64,000 bases of DNA from Psilocybe cubensis (GCA_017499595.2 CM039000.1:2294001-2358000); one strand, 5' to 3'. Shown: positions 49,509 to 59,200, numbered from the stretch's first letter. A program made the numbers and translations. Notes: a model not told the origin generated them from the letters alone.

Positions 49509-50647
49509 ATGGCAGAGCTTGCTCCTGCTCCAACTTCGTCTGCTCCCATGGAGGGTATTATCTCGGCAGATAGGCCAGAGACAGTCTCTCAATCAACTCC
49601 CGCTGTCGAAGAATATTCATGCGAAACCCTCTATATACAGAACTTGAACGAGAAGATCAAACCTGAAGGTATTATTTTATCATTGAAACTTAGATCGCTT
49701 GTTAACCGTATATTTGTCTTAGTTATGAAAGCTTCTCTACGTGGCTTATTCAAGGTCTATGGAGAGGTTTTGGATGTTGTAGCACACAAGAATCTAAGAA
49801 TGCGTGGTCAAGCATTCGTATCCTTCGCGTCTCCCGAGATCGCTAAGAACGCGATGAAAGACGTACAACGTTTCCCCTTGTATTCAAAACCGATGGTGAA
49901 TAACAATATTGTTACGATCATACTGCACCATGAACTAACTCGTAGCTCGAAGCAAATATCGTTCGCCCGAACACGGTCCGACGCGGTGGTCAAGAAGTTG
50001 GATACAGAGCATTTCGACGAGCATAAAGCGCGGAGGGAGGAACATAAAAGTATGTTCTTGACATTGTTTTTCAAGCACTCTTAACTAACGAGGATACCGA
50101 AGAGAAGACACGGTATACGAATCCCCTTAAGTCCAAGTTTAGAGCCAAACGACTAGCTGCAGAAGGTTTGGAGTTTATCATATTCATTGTCCGCTCTCTA
50201 AACACCATGTTTAGTGGACGGAGGTGCTGCAGCTCCTGCTCCCAAACGGCCGAACGTCCAAATGCCAGACGAATACTTACCACCAAACAAAATTCTTTTC
50301 CTTCAAAATCTACCAGAATCGGTCACCAAAGACCAGCTAATGGCCCTTTTTTCTCAGTCAGTATCCATTATTGGGTCGTCGCTTAAATTCGAAGCCAAAT
50401 CTTACAAAATATATTTAGATATCCAAATCTCCACGAAGTTCGTCTTATTCCAACAAAAAGAGACATCGCTTTCGTGGAATTTTTGGACGAGGGAAGTGCA
50501 GGAGTAGCCAAAGATGCCCTGCACAATTACAAGTTGGATGGAGAGAACAAGATCAAGGTTCATCTATCTATTACCTTTACTGACAATTACCCAATATCTC
50601 ATGACATAAACATTTTTTCTTCACAGATTACCTTTGCGAGGAAGTAG
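49509..50647 (+). CDS. U1A/U2B''-family snRNP protein (two RRMs)
   Basis: 'TLYIQNLNEKIK...DVVAHKNLRMRGQAFV...KPM|QISFAR', second RRM 'LPPNKILFLQNLP...EVRLIPTKRDIAFVEF...IK|ITFARK*'. Confidence 0.93.
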
Positions 50648-51227
50648 TTGGGACTTGTACATTATTTTTTCTTTTCTATTCTGTTGTGTAACATCATTCA
50701 TGCGGCTCGAAATCTACTCCCGACTTTTGATTGAGGTAGTATGGATTTACTATCTGAAGCTTACCGACACGCAGGCTACTCGGTTTCTTGTCCCCTTTCG
50801 GTTTCGACAGATGTGTACCGGAAATTTACCTGTGGTGGATTGGGAGCTACTGCCCAAAGTAGATCAACTCAAGAGTAACGACATCGGTAATTTGTACATC
50901 GATTGAGCTTGTCTTTTGTAGTCACAGCTATTGAAACCTTGTTTGACCTCCGAGGCGGAATACTATGTTCTTTTTGCAGCGAGTTGCCGCCCCTCCTTGT
51001 GGCTGTAGCAATAAACATCACGGTGTCGTGATATCCTGAAACGGTTGATGTAATTAAGACTAGCCCCGCCATCAAATTGCGCCGGTAGCATAAATACCCG
51101 GAATTTGGGTGTAAGATACCCCACTTCTGTTGCTGGCCAACGGAAACAATCCTCGCCTATTTCCCCAGGTTGTACCGCACCCTCGACACCTTTTCACAGC
51201 AACGCACAAATTCGGCTCTTCAATTCC

Positions 51228-52309
51228 ATGAGTGCACTCAAGTTGTCCAAAACCTCTGCAGGGCAGGCGCGCGGCGCATTTGGGCAGGTCAAAAGGCGAT
51301 GTGAGTGCAGAAGAATCGCCGTTCACACTAAATGTTGCTCTGCACCGCAGTCGCTCATGGAGTCTTTAGGGATCCATGGCTCTCTGAAAAGACAAGGCAT
51401 ATTGATGCCTGCTATGTCCCCTTTGATGACGGAGGGTACAATTACGCGCTGGAAGAAGAGGGAAGGCGAGGCTTTTGAGGCTGGAGATGTCTTGCTGCAA
51501 ATTGTGCGTACCTATCGTTTCCTACGCCATTTTTCGACAGTCATTAATTTTGGCGGATTGGTGCCTTTAGGAATCAGATCTCTATATGGTTGACGTTGAA
51601 GCTCAGTGTCCAGGTATCTTGGGTAAAATTTTGGTTAGTTTATCTGAATCCAGCCCCCTGACCGCCATTCTGACTCGATTCAATTCCCATCAAATTAGAT
51701 ACCCGATGGAACGTCTAACGTGCCGGTAGAGCAACTCATTGCACTGGTCGCCCGAGACACGAACGAGCTCGCTGTATTGCAAAATCAGTCAAATTTGCCT
51801 CTCCCTCCTGCCTTGAACTCGTTGCCTGTACCGCCCAGTACATCAGCTTCCTCTCCTCGTCAATCATTCAAACCCTTGTCATCTCCACGCACACCTACTA
51901 TGTCTTCTCGTACTCCATCTTTGTTTGAGATGCACACTATGGGATATGGTCAACGAAATGCACACATAGGCGGCCCCCGCGGAACTATACCCAAACCTCT
52001 GGAATCACTTGGTCTCGACACAACCTCTGAAATTCGGGTTGCCATGTCGCCTTGTCTAACACCACAATGGCTAGCTTCACAGACGCAAACTGAGGTGTCT
52101 TCGCCGTTTACCCCTTCCACCACGAAATGGCCAGCATCTGGCGGAGATGTAGATCAATTTCAAGTAAGTTGTACAAGCACTTGATAATTCAATCATCAAT
52201 CACTGAGCCATATGAAAACAATTAGACTGAGGGGGCCGCTCTCCGGAGGATGATTGTTTCGAATCTTTCACAATCCTCTAGAGGTGTTGAGATTGAGGAT
52301 TGGCTATGA
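51228..52309 (+). CDS. Mitochondrial lipoyl-domain protein, a PDX1 paralog lacking the lipoylation lysine
   Basis: Presequence MSALKLSKTSAGQARGAFGQVKRR|WIHGS; 'MPAMSPLMTEGTITRWKKREGEAFEAGDVLLQI|ESDLYMVDVEAQCPGILGKIL|IPDG...'; last exon TEGAALRRMIVSNL...EDWL*; four GT-AG introns, reading frame intact. Confidence 0.85.
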
Positions 52310-52479
52310 TTTTTGCAACCTGATAGTTTCATGTGTGTACTATATCATGTATTATAGTAGCTTTTCATGGCCCGGAAAGAATAAAATATGAGCCCGCGAC
52401 ACTTTTAGCGTTGAGAGGCGAACCGTGTCACAAAAAGGGCGGTATACATGAATTTGTCTGCAAAGGTTAACCATGATTA

Positions 52480-54452
52480 CTATATTTCATCATCCAAAGC
52501 CAAGCACTAAAAACATCGACGAGTATCAGTACCAAATCACGTAGTTAAACACTACTAACCCTAAATTCAATGAAGGCATCGCTGCGCCCTGCCGCTATTC
52601 TAGGCTTTGGGGAAGGCATCAGAAATTGGAGGCTCAGAAGTCCATCTTCATCTATCCTCAAAGACGTTTTGGTTGAACTTGAAAGAGCTTTGATAGTGCG
52701 GGAAATATGTCCAAAACGATAGCTGCCAAAACCTGTTTATTATTTTGCTTTTTACCTAAAGGATGCGGTAAAGTCCACCTGAAAGATACGTTTCTTGTAC
52801 ATTCGAATGTCTCGAGTACTTCCCGGTCATTCGGATAATCCATCTGTTATGTAGATTTCAAGTCAGTGCATGCAACAATACCCTCATCATCATCAAAAAA
52901 AGAAAATTAGTCAAGAAAAAAAACAAACCTCAGTGCTTCCAAATGTGCCGGTTGCTTGAATACGCAGCATGGGCTTCATAACAGGAGATCTTTGCTTTTG
53001 CTTCTGTCGCGCATTCGCATCGCTAGCTAATGGTAACTGTTGTTGATTCGCAGAGATAGGCGGGTTTCCTATAAAGGCCAGTTTCTCGCATGAAGGATCC
53101 AATTCAGATAGGGCATCGCGCAACCACGAGGACTATTCTGTCGTTCGTCAGGGGAAAGTGCAGAAGCTGAATTATCAACATACTTTTAGGATGATCCTAA
53201 GAACTCTACAGAAGTTCGGTTAATTATCTGCAGCAATGTCACAAAGAAAAAGGAGCAAACGTTTTCGAGGTATCGAATTCGAGTTCGAGTTGAGGTTCTG
53301 GGTCGAAAGTAGTGATTTCACATGTGGTGGTAGGCCCGGCTGCGTCTTCGGCACTACGCAATTCTGAATCGTACAGAAATAATGAGAATGACGAATCAAT
53401 AAACGTACATGATCAACGTAAGAGGATATCCTCCACCAGGATAAGAGAGACGCATGCTAGTCCTCTTCGAGTTTGATCCACCATTGCCAAAATATGCATC
53501 CAATCCCCTCATAGGTAGGTTAGCTCCTTGACGATCTCTATGATCACTATTCTCGCCATCTGAGTTGTCTTCGTTAGGGTTTGGCCATCCCCTGCCTTGA
53601 CCAACTCTGTTCCCGCCTCTGCCTCTGCCTCCTCTGCCTCCCCCGGACCCTCTTTCCCCGTCATCTATTGCCCCTGACGACGTATTTATATTCCCTGTAG
53701 CCGGGCCCGCCGTTCCAAAGATATTTAAGCACTCTATCAGCGTAGTCAAAGGAATTTCAAATGCTGCATTCTCCATGTCTTGTTCTTCCTCGTCTTCTTG
53801 CTGATATTCTTGTTGGTCATGAGGTTTGTTGCAATCTTCGTCCGACTCGGATTCAGTCTCGGAGTCCAACATACCAACTTGGCCAAGATGTGAAGGTCCC
53901 ACTTCTTGCTTTGTATCACGCTTGGACCTTTCTGTTCGCTTTCCCTTGGAGTTAGACAGTCGATGTCGAGGTGGAGGTTCGGGGTGGAATGTATATTCGT
54001 CGAAAACATCTGAGAAGATGAATGCCGTTCCTAGAGCCCAAACATGACGGAAGCAAAGATGATAGAGTAGATTACAGTTCCAGAGAGTCTAGAAAATATA
54101 AACGCGTTATTTACCTAGCAACGTACGAGCCTCTTCCACAGTAATCGTGAGTCCTGTCTCCGTGATTGTCACTGTACCTCGCTAATTTGTGTCAGAAAGA
54201 AACAATGCATATAATTGGCCAGGAGAACCTTACATACATTAGAAAACTGAACTCCTCGCAGTAAGGCCACAAAATATCGTAGATCATGAACGGAGGCCGT
54301 CAACACCTGAAAAGACCATAACAGCGTGGATAATAGAAGAAAGATTTGCCCGTATAAGAGAAAAATGACGCTTTGTTATTTCGTCCTGCTGATACCCTTT
54401 AATATTCTGTTGAAATATAACTCACGGGTGGCAGCACATCATTCTGCGCCAT
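52480..54452 (-). CDS. RAD1: 9-1-1 checkpoint clamp subunit Rad1/Rec1/Rad17
   Basis: 'LTASVHDLRYFVALLRGV', 'GLTITVEEAR', 'AFIFSDVFDEYTF', 'TTLIECLNIFG', 'TTTCEITT', 'IILK|SSWLRDALSELD', 'GTFGSTE|MDYP', 'SLRIDEDGLLSLQFLM', 'FIEFR|CLALDDEI*'. Confidence 0.92.
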
Positions 54453-54725
54453 CGGCCAGGTCAAAGTAGAGTTCAAAGGAATTAATTGTAAACAGTAAGA
54501 CAGAGACAGAAAACACCCTGGTGTCCGGGCCGTACCATCCGGCAATTCAAGAATTTCACACTTCTGTCCATTTAGTTTACCCTACGCTCAAAGCAAATTA
54601 ACTTCTACAGTCAGGGTCGGCATTCCTGATATTAGCTGGCAAAGCCTCTAAGGGGGTGTATAGTGTGATTAATAAAATAACAGGAACGTGATAGTTCTGT
54701 AGCGTAGCTAAAACCTAACATCTAG

Positions 54726-55984
54726 CTAATATAGACCGTCCAGGTAGTTGGTAGTCTTGGATGGTGCAGGTGGGGTAACAGGTGTCTGTAATGTCGACTT
54801 GGAGACGGGGGGTAAATAATCTGCGAGAACAGAATCGAAGTCCGCGTCCTTGATAGCTGAATTCGAATGAATGTTAACAAGTTTGTCTCCGAGTAGAATA
54901 GTATCACTGATGCGTACCAGAAGGAACGGGGTTCCTCGCTTTGATGGATGCTTGTAGCATAGAGGAGACGATGAGTCGTCGGATAGAAGGACCATCGAGA
55001 GGAACCTTTATTGACATAAATAAAGTGCGTTTGCTTGACAAATTAGCAAGGACTTACCGGTGCTGCCGCTGCTGCCTGACTTGGAGCCTTTGATCTAGCC
55101 TGGTTGGCCTCTTCAATGGGTGAGATGCTTGGTTTAAAGGTTCCAAGTGGGCCTGAAGCCTTGCCTAGGAATGTCAACACATCCCCCTTGGTGAGCATAC
55201 CTCTCACTCCAGTGCCCTTAATGTCTTCCACTTTGGTAACTTTATGTTCAAGTAAAAGACGGTGAACAGATGGGAACAATGGACGAGCGTGTTCGGGAAG
55301 GGCATATGAGTGAGCTCCAGTTGCGTGGATTGGTTCTGAGGGTGTAAACACGGGTTCCGAGGCCGGAGGTGAACTGGATGCCGAATTTCCCGTTTCCTTT
55401 GGCGCTGGTGTTGTCTCTTCTTTGGGCAATTCAAGATTCGAAATATCGTCTCCTTCCTCCGCAAGAAGAGCAATGATTTTTCCAACAGGCACACCCTTGG
55501 TACCATCTGGTGCCTAAGTAAATTGTATAGGTATTTATATATGACAACCTTCACAATAGAAAATAGGCGTGGACCGACCAAGATTTTGCCCATTATACCG
55601 TCTTCCTGTGCTTCGACATCTATAGTGGCTTTATCTGTCTCCTACAAGGAAGAAAGGCATATATAAATGGACAGTCCGAAGCCAAAAGTATTTATGCCTA
55701 CAATTTCCAGCAGAACGTCACCTTGAACAAAAGATTCCCCCTCCTTTTTCTTCCAAGACGCGATGCCACCTTCAGTCATTGTCGGAGACATGGCAGGCAT
55801 CTGGAAGTTAGTGACAGCCCATCGTGCACTTGAACCATGGAACACTGAAAGTATCCGAAATTGATTTCAATTATAGCTCAAATGTGTTGAAACGAAGAAG
55901 AGGCTCACGCCTAGCCGCATGAGATGCAGCTGGGACCATCTGAGAGGCCCTGAAAGCCATAGAAATGCCCTTCATGCAGGCCAT
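54726..55984 (-). CDS. PDX1: Pyruvate dehydrogenase protein X (E3-binding protein)
   Basis: Presequence; lipoyl domain 'MPAMSPTMTEGGIASWKKKEGE...LLEI|ETDKATIDVEAQ'; PSBD 'LFPSVHRLL...IKGTGVRGMLTKGDVL'; short C-terminus with no acyltransferase domain. Confidence 0.92.
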
Positions 55985-56283
55985 TGTGGAGGAGGTACCG
56001 GAGTAAGTGGTGGGCAGAAGGAAGGCGAGTTTCGCCAAATGCCTGGGGCCACAGAATATGTATAGACGCACGTGATGCTCCCTGGCGGGGAAACGCTTCT
56101 CAGAATTTCGGTTGTGGCTTGAACTTATCACTGACCGATACAAGAGCTTCCAACTCAGTTATGACCCTTGGATGCTCCTAGTTTTCTCTGAATTTCTTTC
56201 GCTGCTGCCACCATAACAGCCACCGTTCGAAGTCCTATAGAAAGCCCACAATTTGCACAGCAATCCGTAGTCACTTCCTTTCC

Positions 56284-59200
56284 ATGCTCACAATCATCTC
56301 GCGAGTGTACCGGTGGATTCGCACTCTCAGTCAGAGGTTTTTTCTGCAATTTGGATTGTGAGTGTTATAGCAATGCGTGTTAAATGTGCTCTCATTTTGC
56401 TATAGACACTGTGCCACCCACCAAATTCGTGTTATTCTCATCTCCTGTGTGGTCATTACGTCGCTGTTCTATCCTGCACTCGACCTTTATACTTCATCTC
56501 GGAATTCCTCCCAGTCACTCCTTTACAATTGGGGATGTGCTCTACATCCTGCTCCAGAACAAGACCTTGCCAATCTTTGGCAAAGTCAAGACACGCTGCG
56601 GGTACATGAAGATCCCGTTGCCCGTGCAAAATGCAGGGCTAATAACGCTATACGCGTAGAACATATCCTTATCCAGAGCCCCCTTGTAGAGGATGATGGA
56701 GCACTGAACCACAATATTCTTCTGTCTACACTGGATCTCGAGCAACGCTTGGAGGATATAATCTCTTCTGGAGATTCCCCATGCCTGAAGAAACCAGACG
56801 GGAAATGTCTGGTCATTTCCCCACTTGCATTCTGGAACTATGACAAGTCCACCCTTCTATCCGATTCCAACGTCTTTGATACTCTCACTCACTCCAAGAA
56901 TGTTTCTGTTTCTGGCATCCCCATCACTCCGCAAATGGTCTTAGCAGGAAGGGGATCATACGAGCCTCACGTCGGCGGGAATAAATTGGATTATGCCACA
57001 TTCCTTGCCCTGAGCTACTTCTTTCCAAATAGTCCATGCTGGGACTCTGGAGCAGAGCACGCTCTTTGGGTACACACTATCCAAAACACGGTTTCTCAGG
57101 ACGCCGAGGTTGTTGCCCGAGGCCCTGAAGCCACTCTGATTGCTCTTGACGTACGTATATATTTTCTATTGCATCCTTTAGGCTAACACTTTTCTAATTC
57201 ATTCATATAATATAGTATGATCCTCATCTGTCCACCACGAAGGGCTGGTCGGCTATTTCGGCGTTCCTTTATTTAGCATATATCGGATTTATTGCCTACG
57301 TTGTCTGGTCAGTCAAATACATGGACGCCGTACACTCGCGCCTGGGGGTGACATTCACAGCGCTTGTCGAAATTGCTGTGTCAACAATCACGTCACTTAG
57401 TGTATGCGCGCTCGTAGGATTCAAAATCACTATGGTGCCATGGTACGTCCGGTCTTTAAAATCTTTTCTAAGTCAGGCGATTTATATTTTGCATGCAGGG
57501 AGGTGTTGCCAATAGTGATCGTTTTTGTTGGTGCTGAAAATATGTTCACTCTGGTGAGTGACTCTCGGCGGCCGTATGAATAGATTTACTCATGCGGATT
57601 ACTCGCGCCTATTAGGTAGATGCGGTCGGCAAAACGTCTGTCACGCTGTCGGTCAAGCAACGCATCGCAGAAGGGTTAAGTCGCGCAGGGACCTCTAATA
57701 CGCTAAAGGTTGTCTCGTACAACTCTATCTTGGGCATTATAGCTGTATTTGCTGTCGGTGCCGTGCGTCAATTTTGCATCTTCGCCATTGTCGTTCTGGT
57801 CGCACATTGGTTTTTGGCACACACCTTTTTTATGGCGGTTCTTTCCATCGACATAGCTCGATTGGAGGTTTGTTTTATCGTGACTCATAAACGCTCATAA
57901 GATGCTAATAGATATTATCTTTTTCAATCCAGCTAGAAGAACTTCTCAGACATGATACCAGCTTGGTGCCATCAGTTCCGCCAAAGGCAGATAACCTGAA
58001 CACAAAGCAACCACGCTCTGGGTGGCGGAAACTCATCTTGACCGTTCAAAATCTCTTACAAGGAAGAGCGGCAACCAATATCAGTCTCCTCATGGTGAGT
58101 TGAGAAGCGTTCTTTTAGTACTTGATTAAAGGCATGGACCTCTGACACCCTTTCTTTCACGCCTATCTGATCTAGCTCTTAGCAATTGCTGCCACTTTGT
58201 ACTACACTACCTATACTGCATCAACTTCGACGTTGGACTCTACTCTTCGTAAGCCTCTCGGCGCTATTTCAAGGACAAAGACACGCCCAGCCGCGGACGC
58301 TATTTCGATCGCAGAGCACATCTGGAAAACTCTAAATCCCGCACAGACACCGCTATTACATCTACGCCTCGAGATTCCTACTATCATCACCTTCAGCGCT
58401 GGTAGTGAGATCTCCAGAAATCCTTCAGGCATCAATGCTCGGTACACTAAACGAACGTTCAAGTTCATTCTATGGATACTAACTATTCTAGTGGTGCCTA
58501 TTGCGGCTACCACCGGCGCGCTGTACGGTTTACTTCTCTACCTTATGAAGAATACCGAGTTACTGGATGCCCAGAGGCAAAGCGCGGAAGCTGACAGTAC
58601 CTCGGACGCCGTAGCAGATGAAAAAATTTTCCAGGACAAGTTTTCGTTCTCCACTCTCCCACGAGCGTTTCCGAGTGATGTTGAGCTTATCGCTGCCAGC
58701 AAAGATGGGCGTATCATTGTCTCTGTAGGGCTCAATAACGAAATCATTACCTGGAACGCAAATACAAAAAAACATATATCAGTCAATGCAGCTGACGTTT
58801 TATTGCGGATGACAAGCACCTCTTCGTCTGCAGGGTCGACTGTGACTTCGGTAGCAGTGGACGACAAAGGTCGATATTTTGCTGTGGGGACGGGCGCGGG
58901 CCTAATCGCCGTATGGAGTGTAAGTAAGAGCAGTGGGAAGGTCAAGCATTTACCTCCCTTAGCCTTGGAAAACTCTTCAGCAGGTGTGACAGAGATGCAA
59001 TTTGTGCCCTCCCTCTCAGGTTATTCGAGGACTTTTGGGCGCTCACCTCCTGCATCTGAACCAAGTTCTCCGGAAACGAAAGGAAGTGACATGGTACTGC
59101 TGGCGACATACGAAAATGGCGTAGTGGCAAGATGGACTGTGGGAGAAATACCATCTGTTACCTATTTCGTGGCGTCGCGGCGAGCTACCGTCGTTCGTTC

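Follow-up and report, generated by a model that had tools for sequence, protein, structure and literature searches.

The window analysed here, a stretch of 64,000 nucleotides from Psilocybe cubensis (GCA_017499595.2 CM039000.1:2294001-2358000), contains, close to PDX1, the gene of E3BP (protein X), a twin of this gene which, to judge by its sequence, probably encodes a non-catalytic accessory or regulatory subunit of pyruvate dehydrogenase (PDH), so far undescribed. The twin is probably non-catalytic because the lysine that carries lipoic acid is lost, in a gene that is expressed and conserved. PDH controls the passage from glycolysis to respiration and, to our knowledge, the list of its subunits in fungi (E1, E2, E3, E3BP, kinases and phosphatases) is considered complete. 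If our reading is true, the twin is a conserved fifth structural relative, unlipoylated and without E3 binding, through which PDH would be controlled at one more, stoichiometric level. Our searches of the open literature yielded no article that describes an E3BP paralog without this lysine.

The lysine-less paralog and its transcript

The products of the two genes share 34% identity over 260 columns (BLASTP, E 6e-36), a similarity that is far beyond chance, and a single gene, RAD1, separates them (Table 1). The latter is identified by Pfam Rad1 (PF02144, the Rad1/Rec1/Rad17 family), with E-values of 1.2e-11 on the window ORF at 53399-54088 (minus strand) and 7.1e-60 on the public model P0126; the spliced contigs lack eight CT..AC introns within it. 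The original prediction of an intact protein X paralog near PDX1, with RAD1 alone between them, is thus confirmed. The orthologs of PDX1 are publicly named pyruvate dehydrogenase X component, and three of the PDX1 introns are among the joints listed for the spliced contigs.

The two genes were also said to have introns at matching positions. This stands for introns 1-3, which have equal aligned positions and phases (1, 0, 0) in both, but only to within two codons of the BLASTP alignment for the fourth, which is in phase 0 in both genes. One of the junctions quoted for PDX1, RR/LFHGS (the slash marks the intron), in fact reads AR/LFHGS. Exon 3 is 63 nt long in both genes, while the fifth intron and the last exon of PDX1 have no counterpart in the lysine-less paralog.

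Table 1. Features of the paralog, RAD1 and PDX1, with positions counted from the first nucleotide of the window
Feature	Position	Strand	Remarks
Lysine-less PDX1 paralog	51228..52309	+	5 exons, 272 aa
Exons of the paralog	51228-51300, 51370-51503, 51571-51633, 51699-52163, 52226-52309	+	last exon with stop
5' untranslated part of the paralog	51156..51227	+	51156 is the start of the spliced run X1 contig
Basic, presequence-like N-terminal 33 residues	51228..51395	+	one intron inside; homologous to the PDX1 N-terminus
Lipoyl-like domain, residues about 35-110	51399..51758	+	two introns inside; Pfam Biotin_lipoyl, ortholog model
Former lipoylation hairpin, ESDLY	51571..51585	+	Leu (CTC) at the acceptor Lys position
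Conserved motif in the linker, residues 148-185, a degenerate trace of the E3-binding domain	51870..51983	+	MAFFT against the PDX1 PSBD
C-terminal amphipathic helix, homologous to the first PDX1 core-binding helix	52226..52270	+	BLASTP alignment, ortholog model
Acidic-hydrophobic C-terminal tail	52286..52306	+	ends IEDWL
RAD1 (9-1-1 clamp subunit)	52480..54600	-	convergent with the paralog; stop 52480, 5' limit approximate
PDX1 / E3BP	54726..55984	-	6 exons, 318 aa
Exons of PDX1	55984-55909, 55844-55702, 55641-55579, 55513-55058, 55005-54918, 54856-54726	-	
ETDKA of PDX1	55627-55641	-	
E3-binding domain of PDX1	about 55175-55273	-	
Core-binding helix of PDX1	within 54918-55005	-	exon 5
Terminal NYLDGLY of PDX1	54729-54749	-	

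All four introns of the paralog have GT..AG borders and its frame is intact. The last 272 residues of the public protein P0040 are identical to its product, and the open frame, which extends from 51054, contains no in-frame ATG upstream of the start at 51228. Two runs of one study, X1 and X2, presumed to be RNA, were used for the joined, intron-less form of their contigs: exactly the four predicted introns are absent from these, whereas two DNA runs retain them. This shows that the mRNA of the paralog is made, and made without a lysine at the lipoyl site. The contig joints 51503>51571 and 51632/3>51698/9 flank exon 3, which is therefore present in the mRNA. The expression on which the original prediction made itself depend is borne out by these contigs, spliced as modelled. 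In relatives, 11 intronless contigs carry full or near-full ORFs of the lysine-less paralog.

The N-terminal 33 residues of the paralog include eight lysines and arginines and no aspartate or glutamate, and the RRW.HGS / R.LHGS block is kept in both families. This presequence-like N-terminus presumably has a role in mitochondrial targeting.

Retained and lost elements of E3BP

The ETDKA hairpin of PDX1 is replaced by ESDLY in the paralog which, as the original prediction had it, has no acceptor lysine; the aligned run contigs show zero letter differences at this site. Throughout the family, lysine is found in 0 of 109 readable sites, compared with ETDKA in 114 of 116 PDX1 orthologs, and a profile search of the full library gives the same picture: among its best 150 hits, all 44 family representatives with a readable site are devoid of lysine there. 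The residue that takes its place is mostly hydrophobic.

The fold around the lost lysine is kept. In both genes, exon 2 matches Pfam Biotin_lipoyl (3.8e-5 for the paralog, 5.1e-6 for PDX1), and this profile (PF00364) matches 40 of 40 family members, with a best value of 2e-13. The structure models are those of orthologs rather than of the window's own spliced protein; a first model, from a 14-row alignment, was poor (mean pLDDT 44) and was superseded by the one used here, from a 94-row alignment, in which residues 31-120 of the Hebeloma ortholog have pLDDT values of 86-98. With its PF00364 match and its modelled flattened beta-barrel, the domain belongs to the single hybrid motif. Foldseek places the domain model closest to the human E2 inner lipoyl domain and to the lipoyl domain of E3BP; 1y8n_B is matched with E 2.5e-8 and an rmsd of 1.2 A over 85 columns (TM 0.82 by target), and the matches to 1y8n, 3crk and 2q8i have TM scores of 0.82-0.84 by target, rmsd values of 1.2-1.4 A and 38-42% identity. 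The mean identity within the lipoyl-like domain is 77%, versus 87% within the lipoyl domain of PDX1 (45 pairs, 10 species), and several positions conserved in the family differ from PDX1.

The E3-binding domain was described as vestigial and embedded in an SP/TP-rich linker, and both statements prove correct. Pfam E3_binding scores 1.5e-5 on exon 4 of PDX1 but has no hit at E<=1 on the corresponding exon of the paralog, and the same profile (PF02817) matches 0 of 40 family members at that threshold. Nevertheless, MAFFT aligns a conserved linker motif with the PDX1 PSBD, and one of its arginines is near-invariant in both families. This motif is unstructured in the ortholog model (pLDDT 45-57). 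The linker is disordered; that of the window protein has eight SP/TP sites and consists of serine, threonine and proline to 40%.

The retention of the presequence, the frame and the C-terminal helix, also predicted, agrees with the basic N-terminus, the ORF of 272 codons and the homology of this helix with the first core-binding helix of PDX1. In the ortholog model, the helix is predicted at residues 248-260 (block pLDDT 84). In Hebeloma, PDX1 and its lysine-less paralog share 56% identity over this helix, whose mean identity is 51% within the lysine-less family, versus 76% within PDX1. On the contrary, the second core-binding helix (ADFDSV..DYL type) is absent from the lysine-less paralog in the alignments. 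The core-binding region of basidiomycete E3BP comprises two short helices and a Y/F-L/F-DGL-phi end (Forsberg 2023, PMC10156792), and of these three elements the paralog retains only the first helix and the terminal motif. Deeper-branching family members end with YFDGIL-type tails that resemble the E3BP motif. The motif is present in members from Marasmiineae and Tricholomatineae, among others, and has drifted in the window's own lineage (IEDWL, LDELF). A complex prediction with the C-terminal parts of Hebeloma PDX1 and of its paralog, run without alignments, gave a score of 0.01, which speaks neither for binding nor against it.

Forsberg 2023 (PMC10156792) recognises an E3BP by a lipoyl domain, a peripheral-subunit-binding domain and a core-binding region, in the same order as in E2. 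The paralog keeps this order, the middle element being a remnant and the last one half present, but has neither a lipoylatable lysine in a ..TDKA.. hairpin nor an E3-specific peripheral-subunit-binding domain. The same article leaves open by what means basidiomycete E3BP, with its minimal core-binding region, grips E2, and the paralog would be a natural probe of this question, since one helix is kept and the other dropped.

Spread, selection and origin of the family

The lysine-less family is present in 54 named mushroom species, all of them Agaricales, from five suborders, whereas PDX1 is also found in at least five further orders (three checked). Orthologs occur, for instance, in Coprinopsis cinerea (CC1G_03865) and in Schizophyllum. 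In public records the members of the lysine-less family are named hypothetical, protein X or E2, and as a result of this misnaming, pathway reconstructions for cultivated and medicinal mushrooms include a non-functional carrier among the PDH subunits.

The paralog is under purifying selection. The three least diverged pairs of the family have dN/dS values of 0.25, 0.11 and 0.10 (of the 45 pairs compared, 23 yielded no ratio owing to synonymous saturation; L003 and L009 were left out), far from the value near 1 that the original prediction regarded as a danger sign. Frame-broken copies, its other concern, were not seen among the family proteins and loci examined, every full-length member being intact. 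The most constrained part of the protein is the lipoyl-like domain (pN/pS 0.00, 0.02, 0.06 and 0.09), the linker motif being next (0.10-0.28); the values for the C-terminal helix range from 0.05 to 0.41. Outside the lipoyl-like domain, the paralog evolves faster than PDX1.

The linkage between the two genes persists across the five suborders: in three species their locus tags differ by two, and contigs of equal listed size carry them in 26 of 35 species (hand count). It is important to note that the linkage to PDX1 is read from locus tags and listed contig sizes, while the metagenome loci show the RAD1 side: RAD1 is convergent downstream of the paralog in 15 genomic metagenome loci (32 loci fetched). 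The expected lysine-less orthologs have thus been found, with their linkage to PDX1 and RAD1, but physical linkage is not evidence of function. In the tree, the family sits on a long stem (0.75 changes per column), and the duplication is not placed relative to the PDX1 clades; a sister relation to Agaricales PDX1 is not rejected by the AU test (p 0.258). Most simply, the paralog arose by duplication of PDX1 in the ancestor of Agaricales and has been linked to PDX1 and RAD1 since.

Possible roles and comparison with known systems

Overall, the original prediction is partly supported: its structural claims hold, while its functional part, in which the twin would compete for E2-core sites or act as a decoy for PDH kinase, phosphatase or lipoyl transferases, is interpretive. 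The best reading, to which we adhere tentatively, is that the twin is a mitochondrial pseudo-E3BP on the E2 core, which would neither recruit E3 nor carry acyl groups. It would be imported into mitochondria, where its helix and tail would dock in the same pockets of the E2 core as E3BP. As it would not be lipoylated, it would not shuttle acetyl groups, and since it would not recruit E3 either, it would act as a pseudo-subunit at the E3BP sites. By occupying or sharing these sites, it would set the E3 load and the number of working lipoyl arms of the PDH complex, and its dead lipoyl domain would become a protein-binding surface. The model for such a working is provided by plant acetyl-CoA carboxylase, with its non-biotinylated BADC versus BCCP. 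However, the idea of a simple competitor is weakened, since no more than the first helix and the terminal motif are left of the three core-binding elements, and since this motif is altered in the window protein. Against the best reading speak also the lower conservation of the C-terminal helix than in PDX1 and the distribution of constraint, which is strongest on the lipoyl-like domain and on the Ser/Thr-Pro-rich linker motif and could point to a partner outside the PDH complex.

A broader proposal seems to us possible but doubtful: all gilled mushrooms would tune PDH by means of a dead-carrier subunit that has been the neighbour of PDX1 ever since the order arose, competition for the E2-core pockets would determine E3 occupancy and TCA flux, and the twin would be the first known BADC-like pseudo-subunit of any 2-oxoacid dehydrogenase complex. 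A twin that works as a pseudo-subunit would carry the dead-carrier regulatory principle over from biotin to lipoate enzymes.

Alternatively, the twin may be an adaptor on the E2 core, whose dead lipoyl domain and linker recruit another partner (a PDH kinase or phosphatase, or a lipoate-attachment enzyme), so that a function is added and E3BP is not displaced. The low pN/pS of the lipoyl-like domain, followed by that of the linker motif, suits this explanation, as do the family-conserved positions that differ from PDX1 and the fact that the closest solved folds (1y8n, 3crk and 2q8i) are E2 inner lipoyl domains crystallised with PDH kinases. But the binding of PDH kinase to the inner lipoyl domain requires the lipoyl-lysine arm, which is missing here, and we consider the adaptor somewhat unlikely.

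The paralog may also have acquired a new function away from PDH, its carrier fold and helix serving another complex (another 2-oxoacid dehydrogenase, for instance) or another compartment, with a linker that would be regulated. The disappearance of a recognisable E3-binding domain and of one of the two core-binding helices, the long stem and the abundance of SP/TP sites in the linker all speak in favour of this scenario, which we nevertheless find unlikely, because the paralog retains an N-terminal block and a first core-binding helix that are homologous to those of PDX1, and because the linkage to PDX1 is kept in five suborders, even if the latter argument does not bear on function.

That the twin is a decaying or functionless duplicate, a pseudogene in waiting, is very improbable: both hallmark functional sites of its PDX1 parent are lost and the first structure model was poor, but all full-length members seen have intact frames, the gene is expressed and occurs in 54 named species, and its dN/dS (0.10-0.25) and the near-zero non-synonymous change in the lipoyl-like domain refute this reading, as far as can be told from sequence. 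Least probable of all, to a degree that makes it negligible, is an annotation artefact in which another exon or editing restores the lysine in the true mRNA, since the X1 and X2 joints include exon 3 with no letter difference at the lysine-less site, which is also found in the 11 intronless contigs of relatives, even though the public model P0001 omits exon 3 and other public models keep introns.

Compared with PDX1, one gene apart, the twin has in common the exon structure, the N-terminal block, a lipoyl-type domain, the first core-binding helix and, in many members, a Y/F-L/F-DGL-phi-like end; it differs by the absence of the acceptor lysine, of a recognisable E3-binding domain and of the second core-binding helix. 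The modelled domain finds its best structural matches in the inner lipoyl domain (L2) of E2p, the docking site of PDH kinase, but L2, unlike the domain of the twin, is lipoylated and part of a catalytic E2 chain.

The closest parallel to the proposed working is with plant BADC proteins, non-biotinylated paralogs of BCCP that bind plastid acetyl-CoA carboxylase and modulate its activity (PMC12706156). Both BADC and the twin are paralogs of swinging-arm carriers, with a barrel-sandwich fold, long disordered regions and no modified lysine (PMC12706156 for BADC). The likeness is one of proposed working, not of descent: the parent (BCCP versus E3BP), the enzyme, the kingdom and the compartment differ. 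Furthermore, the binding and inhibition by BADC have been measured (PMC12706156), whereas the action of the twin is proposed.

MRPS36/Kgd4 (PMC9974300), the small adaptor of 2-oxoglutarate dehydrogenase that attaches E3 to the E2 core of this complex, is unrelated in sequence; it has no lipoyl-type domain and it recruits E3, which the twin seemingly cannot do. What the two would share is to be non-catalytic accessory subunits of a 2-oxoacid dehydrogenase complex that have long been overlooked.

The locus, its transcripts and its public models

The gene models of the lysine-less paralog, of PDX1 (E3BP, the E3-binding subunit of pyruvate dehydrogenase) and of RAD1 (which encodes a subunit of the 9-1-1 clamp) were built by hand from a reading of window positions 50900–56300. 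The products of the paralog and of PDX1 align with 34% identity over 260 columns (E 6e-36) and the gene between them matches Pfam Rad1 (1.2e-11 for the ORF of the window, 7.1e-60 for the public model P0126), which confirms the paralogy and the position of RAD1. Pfam recognises Biotin_lipoyl in both products; E3_binding is found in PDX1 (1.5e-5), with no match in the paralog at E ≤ 1. Introns 1–3 interrupt identical aligned residues, with phases 1, 0 and 0 in both genes, while intron 4, of phase 0 in both, lies two codons apart in the alignment, and PDX1 has one additional intron and a final exon absent from the paralog. The original prediction of matching introns is thus right for the first three but not exactly for the fourth, and the PDX1 junction it read as RR/LFHGS is actually AR/LFHGS.

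Features of the locus (window coordinates)
Feature	Position	Strand	Description
Lysine-less paralog	51228–52309	+	five exons, 272 aa, introns all GT..AG
Paralog exons (hand model)	51228–51300, 51370–51503, 51571–51633, 51699–52163, 52226–52309	+	
Lipoylation hairpin of the paralog	51571–51585	+	ESDLY (ETDKA in PDX1)
Linker motif of the paralog	51870–51983	+	38 residues
RAD1	between paralog and PDX1	–	Pfam Rad1
PDX1	55984–54726	–	six exons, 318 aa
Segments behind the N-terminal extension of P0040 (the first an upstream ORF)	50610–50906, 51054–51227		80 residues
PDX1–RAD1 fusion of P0126	52480–55984	–	728 aa

Contigs from four sequencing runs were aligned to positions 51000–56100. In X3 and X4, which come from one study, the stretch is present unspliced and in one piece. 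The contigs of X1 and X2, both from a second study, skip 51300>51370, 51503>51571, 51632/3>51698/9 and 52163>52226, all GT..AG, which are precisely the four modelled introns of the paralog. Eight CT..AC introns of RAD1 are absent from them as well, as are the PDX1 introns listed. That these two samples are RNA is a guess, but since every intron of the three genes is missing, the contigs are best read as transcript assemblies. They cover the paralog and include exon 3 in the mRNA with no letter difference listed there, so that the gene model and the spliced contigs agree on the replacement of the acceptor lysine in ESDLY. The contigs differ from the window at a single place within the gene, 51842 A>T (in X1, X2 and X4, not X3); it lies at the third base of a Thr codon (ACA), a silent difference between strains. 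The feature exists as initially described, apart from small corrections.

At 52226–52506 the paralog and RAD1 converge, their stops (52309 and 52480) only 171 bases apart. One contig each in X1 and X2 reads through from one gene to the other, as do the metagenome contigs L002 and L009; the two 3' ends probably overlap or abut. Within its large exon, RAD1 encodes a Gly/Arg-rich, RGG-like low-complexity insert between acidic stretches (about 53560–53680, minus strand).

The family is misnamed in public records. The product of the paralog is identical to the last 272 residues of P0040, a 352 aa model named 'Pyruvate dehydrogenase protein X component, mitochondrial [Psilocybe cubensis]'. The N-terminal extension of this model is without support and looks like a mis-model: five intronless contigs from relatives (L001, L002, L005, L006 and L007) have an in-frame stop shortly upstream of the shared start Met, and the spliced X1 contig begins at 51156. 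PDX1 exon 4 is 100% identical to P0126, a P. cubensis model with Biotin_lipoyl, E3_binding and Rad1 domains, in which PDX1 and RAD1 are wrongly fused; in the aligned assemblies each gene lies on a contig of its own and has its own introns. In several other models (P0001 from Psilocybe cyanescens, P0061, P0043, P0250 and P0256) the lysine-less site is hidden or garbled, either because the 21-codon exon 3 is skipped or because the intron after LLQI is read through.

A lysine-less family in the Agaricales

A search with exon 4 alone found 35 relatives. Sixteen were fetched; the site is visible in 15, none with a lysine (0/15), and is missing from the remaining one, a model without exon 3. A 14-member profile matched 3539 lipoyl-domain proteins, the best 120 of which all belong to the family where readable. 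Over the 125 proteins of the exon-4 matches and these best 120, lysine occurs at 0 of 109 readable sites, the other 16 proteins being mis-modelled (two) or fragments without the site (14). In place of the lysine stands Ile, Leu, Phe, Tyr, Val, Trp, Thr, Asn or a similar residue, never Lys or Arg. Among the orthologs listed by a PDX1 search, 116 of 120 fit the pattern; ETDKA is present in 114 of these and the other two retain an intron at the site. A 40-member profile run against 1.84 billion representatives gave 171 matches below 1e-30; the best 150 comprise 48 family members (44 visibly lysine-less, 4 fragments) and 102 PDX1 or E2 proteins with the lysine. Judged from these sequences, the lysine-less E3BP paralogs are a family of the Agaricales, not an accident of one gene.

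At least 54 species are named among the matches listed (43 in the 14-member profile search and 11 more in further searches). We take all their genera to be Agaricales; seven are confirmed as such in NCBI taxonomy. The suborders Agaricineae, Marasmiineae, Schizophyllineae, Pleurotineae and Tricholomatineae are covered. The PDX1 search also yielded Polyporales, Boletales, Atheliales, Jaapiales and Corticiales (three confirmed in taxonomy), from which no lysine-less relative appears among the matches listed; the PDX1 proteins of these orders reach 130–170 bits against the family profile, so such a relative should appear there. One PDX1, P0239, labelled Pleurotus ostreatoroseus, clusters in the phylogenetic tree with Polyporales (Irpex, Panus, Meripilus) and not with Agaricales; this record may be mislabelled or contaminated.

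A tree was built from 91 named rows (39 family, 33 Agaricales PDX1, 15 other PDX1 and 4 E2-like), after removal of nameless and mis-modelled ones. In it the family forms a single clade with an SH-aLRT of 98, its stem is long (0.75) and its inner branching matches the suborders. The tree gives the family no firm position among the PDX1 clades, and an AU test does not reject one clade of the family and the Agaricales PDX1 (p 0.258). On the simplest reading, PDX1 would have been duplicated once, close to the base of the Agaricales, and the copy would have changed fast and then descended vertically.

The linkage seen in the window recurs. The paralog and PDX1 carry locus tags that differ by two in Psilocybe cf. 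subviscida, Candolleomyces eurysporus and Arthromyces matolae and by four to thirteen in five further species, and by a hand count the two genes sit on contigs of identical size in 26 of the 35 species that list both. RAD1 lies convergent directly downstream of the paralog in 15 genomic metagenome loci (32 fetched); the three of these that were read are lysine-less and have the intron after LLQI.

Domain anatomy and constraint

The first 33 residues of the paralog contain 8 Lys/Arg and no acidic residue, and include a conserved block that also occurs in the PDX1 N-terminus; this suggests a mitochondrial presequence. The structure was modelled on the Hebeloma ortholog, a family member standing in for the spliced protein of the window, with a 94-row alignment. 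The lipoyl-like domain (residues 31–120) has a pLDDT of 86–98, and its best Foldseek matches are the human E2 inner lipoyl domain in PDH kinase complexes (1y8n_B: E 2.5e-8, rmsd 1.2 Å over 85 columns, 38% identity) and the human E3BP lipoyl domain (2dnc, 41% identity); a profile search of PDB sequences is consistent with them.

The linker (40% Ser+Thr+Pro in the window protein) is disordered in the model. Its conserved motif aligns in MAFFT with the PDX1 E3-binding domain; it retains the beginning of helix 1 and the Gly-x-Arg-Gly loop, has one Arg that is nearly invariant in both families, and has lost helix 2. In members from Marasmiineae and Tricholomatineae the loop is still PDX1-like. The vestigial E3-binding domain originally described is therefore visible as an aligned remnant, but not to Pfam, whose E3_binding profile matches 0 of 40 family members at E ≤ 1. 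The C-terminal amphipathic helix (model residues 248–260, block pLDDT 84) is clearly homologous to the first post-linker helix of PDX1 and is followed by a short acidic-hydrophobic tail; like the presequence-like N-terminus, it is retained, as had been proposed.

Eleven metagenome contigs (L001–3, 5–9, 11, 13 and 14) carry a whole or near-whole intronless ORF. Nine of them and the window gave a codon alignment of 45 pairs. Synonymous sites are saturated in 23; in the other 22, dN/dS is 0.09–0.37, not near 1, and in the three least diverged pairs it is 0.25 (dS 0.15), 0.11 (dS 1.23) and 0.10 (dS 1.27). Regional pN/pS, for these three pairs and for the window against L001, is 0.00, 0.02, 0.06 and 0.09 in the lipoyl-like domain, 0.28, 0.12, 0.11 and 0.10 in the conserved linker motif, 0.34, 0.41, 0.05 and 0.19 in the C-terminal helix, and 0.5–0.6 in the second linker. 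Constraint is thus strongest on the domain that has lost its capacity for lipoylation. Mean identity over ten species is 77% in this domain vs 87% in the PDX1 lipoyl domain of those same ten.

Possible roles and known systems

The paralog is an E3BP relative that is expressed, conserved and under selection. Its carrier-type domain is folded but lacks the acceptor lysine, an E3-binding domain is no longer recognisable, and the core-binding region is partly kept. A role in pyruvate dehydrogenase control is a plausible, directly testable hypothesis. The protein would be imported into mitochondria, where the retained helix and tail could dock it in the pockets of the E2 core, as a pseudo-subunit with no working swinging arm and no E3 to contribute. 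It might then share the E3BP sites or compete for them, or bind another partner through its linker motif and dead domain. Occupancy of the core in competition with E3BP is the reading we tentatively prefer, at somewhat less than even chances. The loss of one of the two core-binding helices counts against it, as does the lower conservation of the C-helix (51% identity vs 76% in PDX1) and the fact that the strongest constraint bears on parts without core contact. An adaptor that brings something else to the E2 core would keep the docking step and is unlikely, at about one chance in four; a function away from PDH is a little more doubtful still. A pseudogene or an artefact is very improbable for a spliced gene under such constraint.

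Core occupancy can be set against what is described for other fungi. Ascomycete E3BP binds inside the E2 core via an amphipathic helix, and basidiomycete E3BP is inferred to be reduced to two short helices and a conserved Y/F-L/F-DGL-phi motif (Forsberg 2023, PMC10156792). On that description, PDX1 of the window fits the basidiomycete type: exon 5 encodes one helix, an ADFDSV..DYL-type helix is the second, and the protein ends in NYLDGLY. The paralog keeps the first core-binding helix and lacks the second. Its end is YFDGIL, YFNGL or YLNGIL in many lineages and has drifted to LDELF or IEDWL in that of the window. A lysine-less paralog is not mentioned in the same article, where a term search finds a single 'paralog', referring to mammalian E3BP, and a single 'lysine', referring to those of E2; the literature searched gave no account of one and no name for the Agaricales family.

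Clusters of small proteins with a lipoyl-type domain alone are listed in a protein atlas for Oomycota (231 aa), Ascomycota (146 aa), Zoopagomycota (148 aa) and Haptophyta, and give a lead to other stand-alone or candidate dead carrier domains in eukaryotes. The closest analogy in working is the BADC family of plants, non-biotinylated paralogs of BCCP which, according to PMC12706156, bind biotin carboxylase and modulate acetyl-CoA carboxylase.
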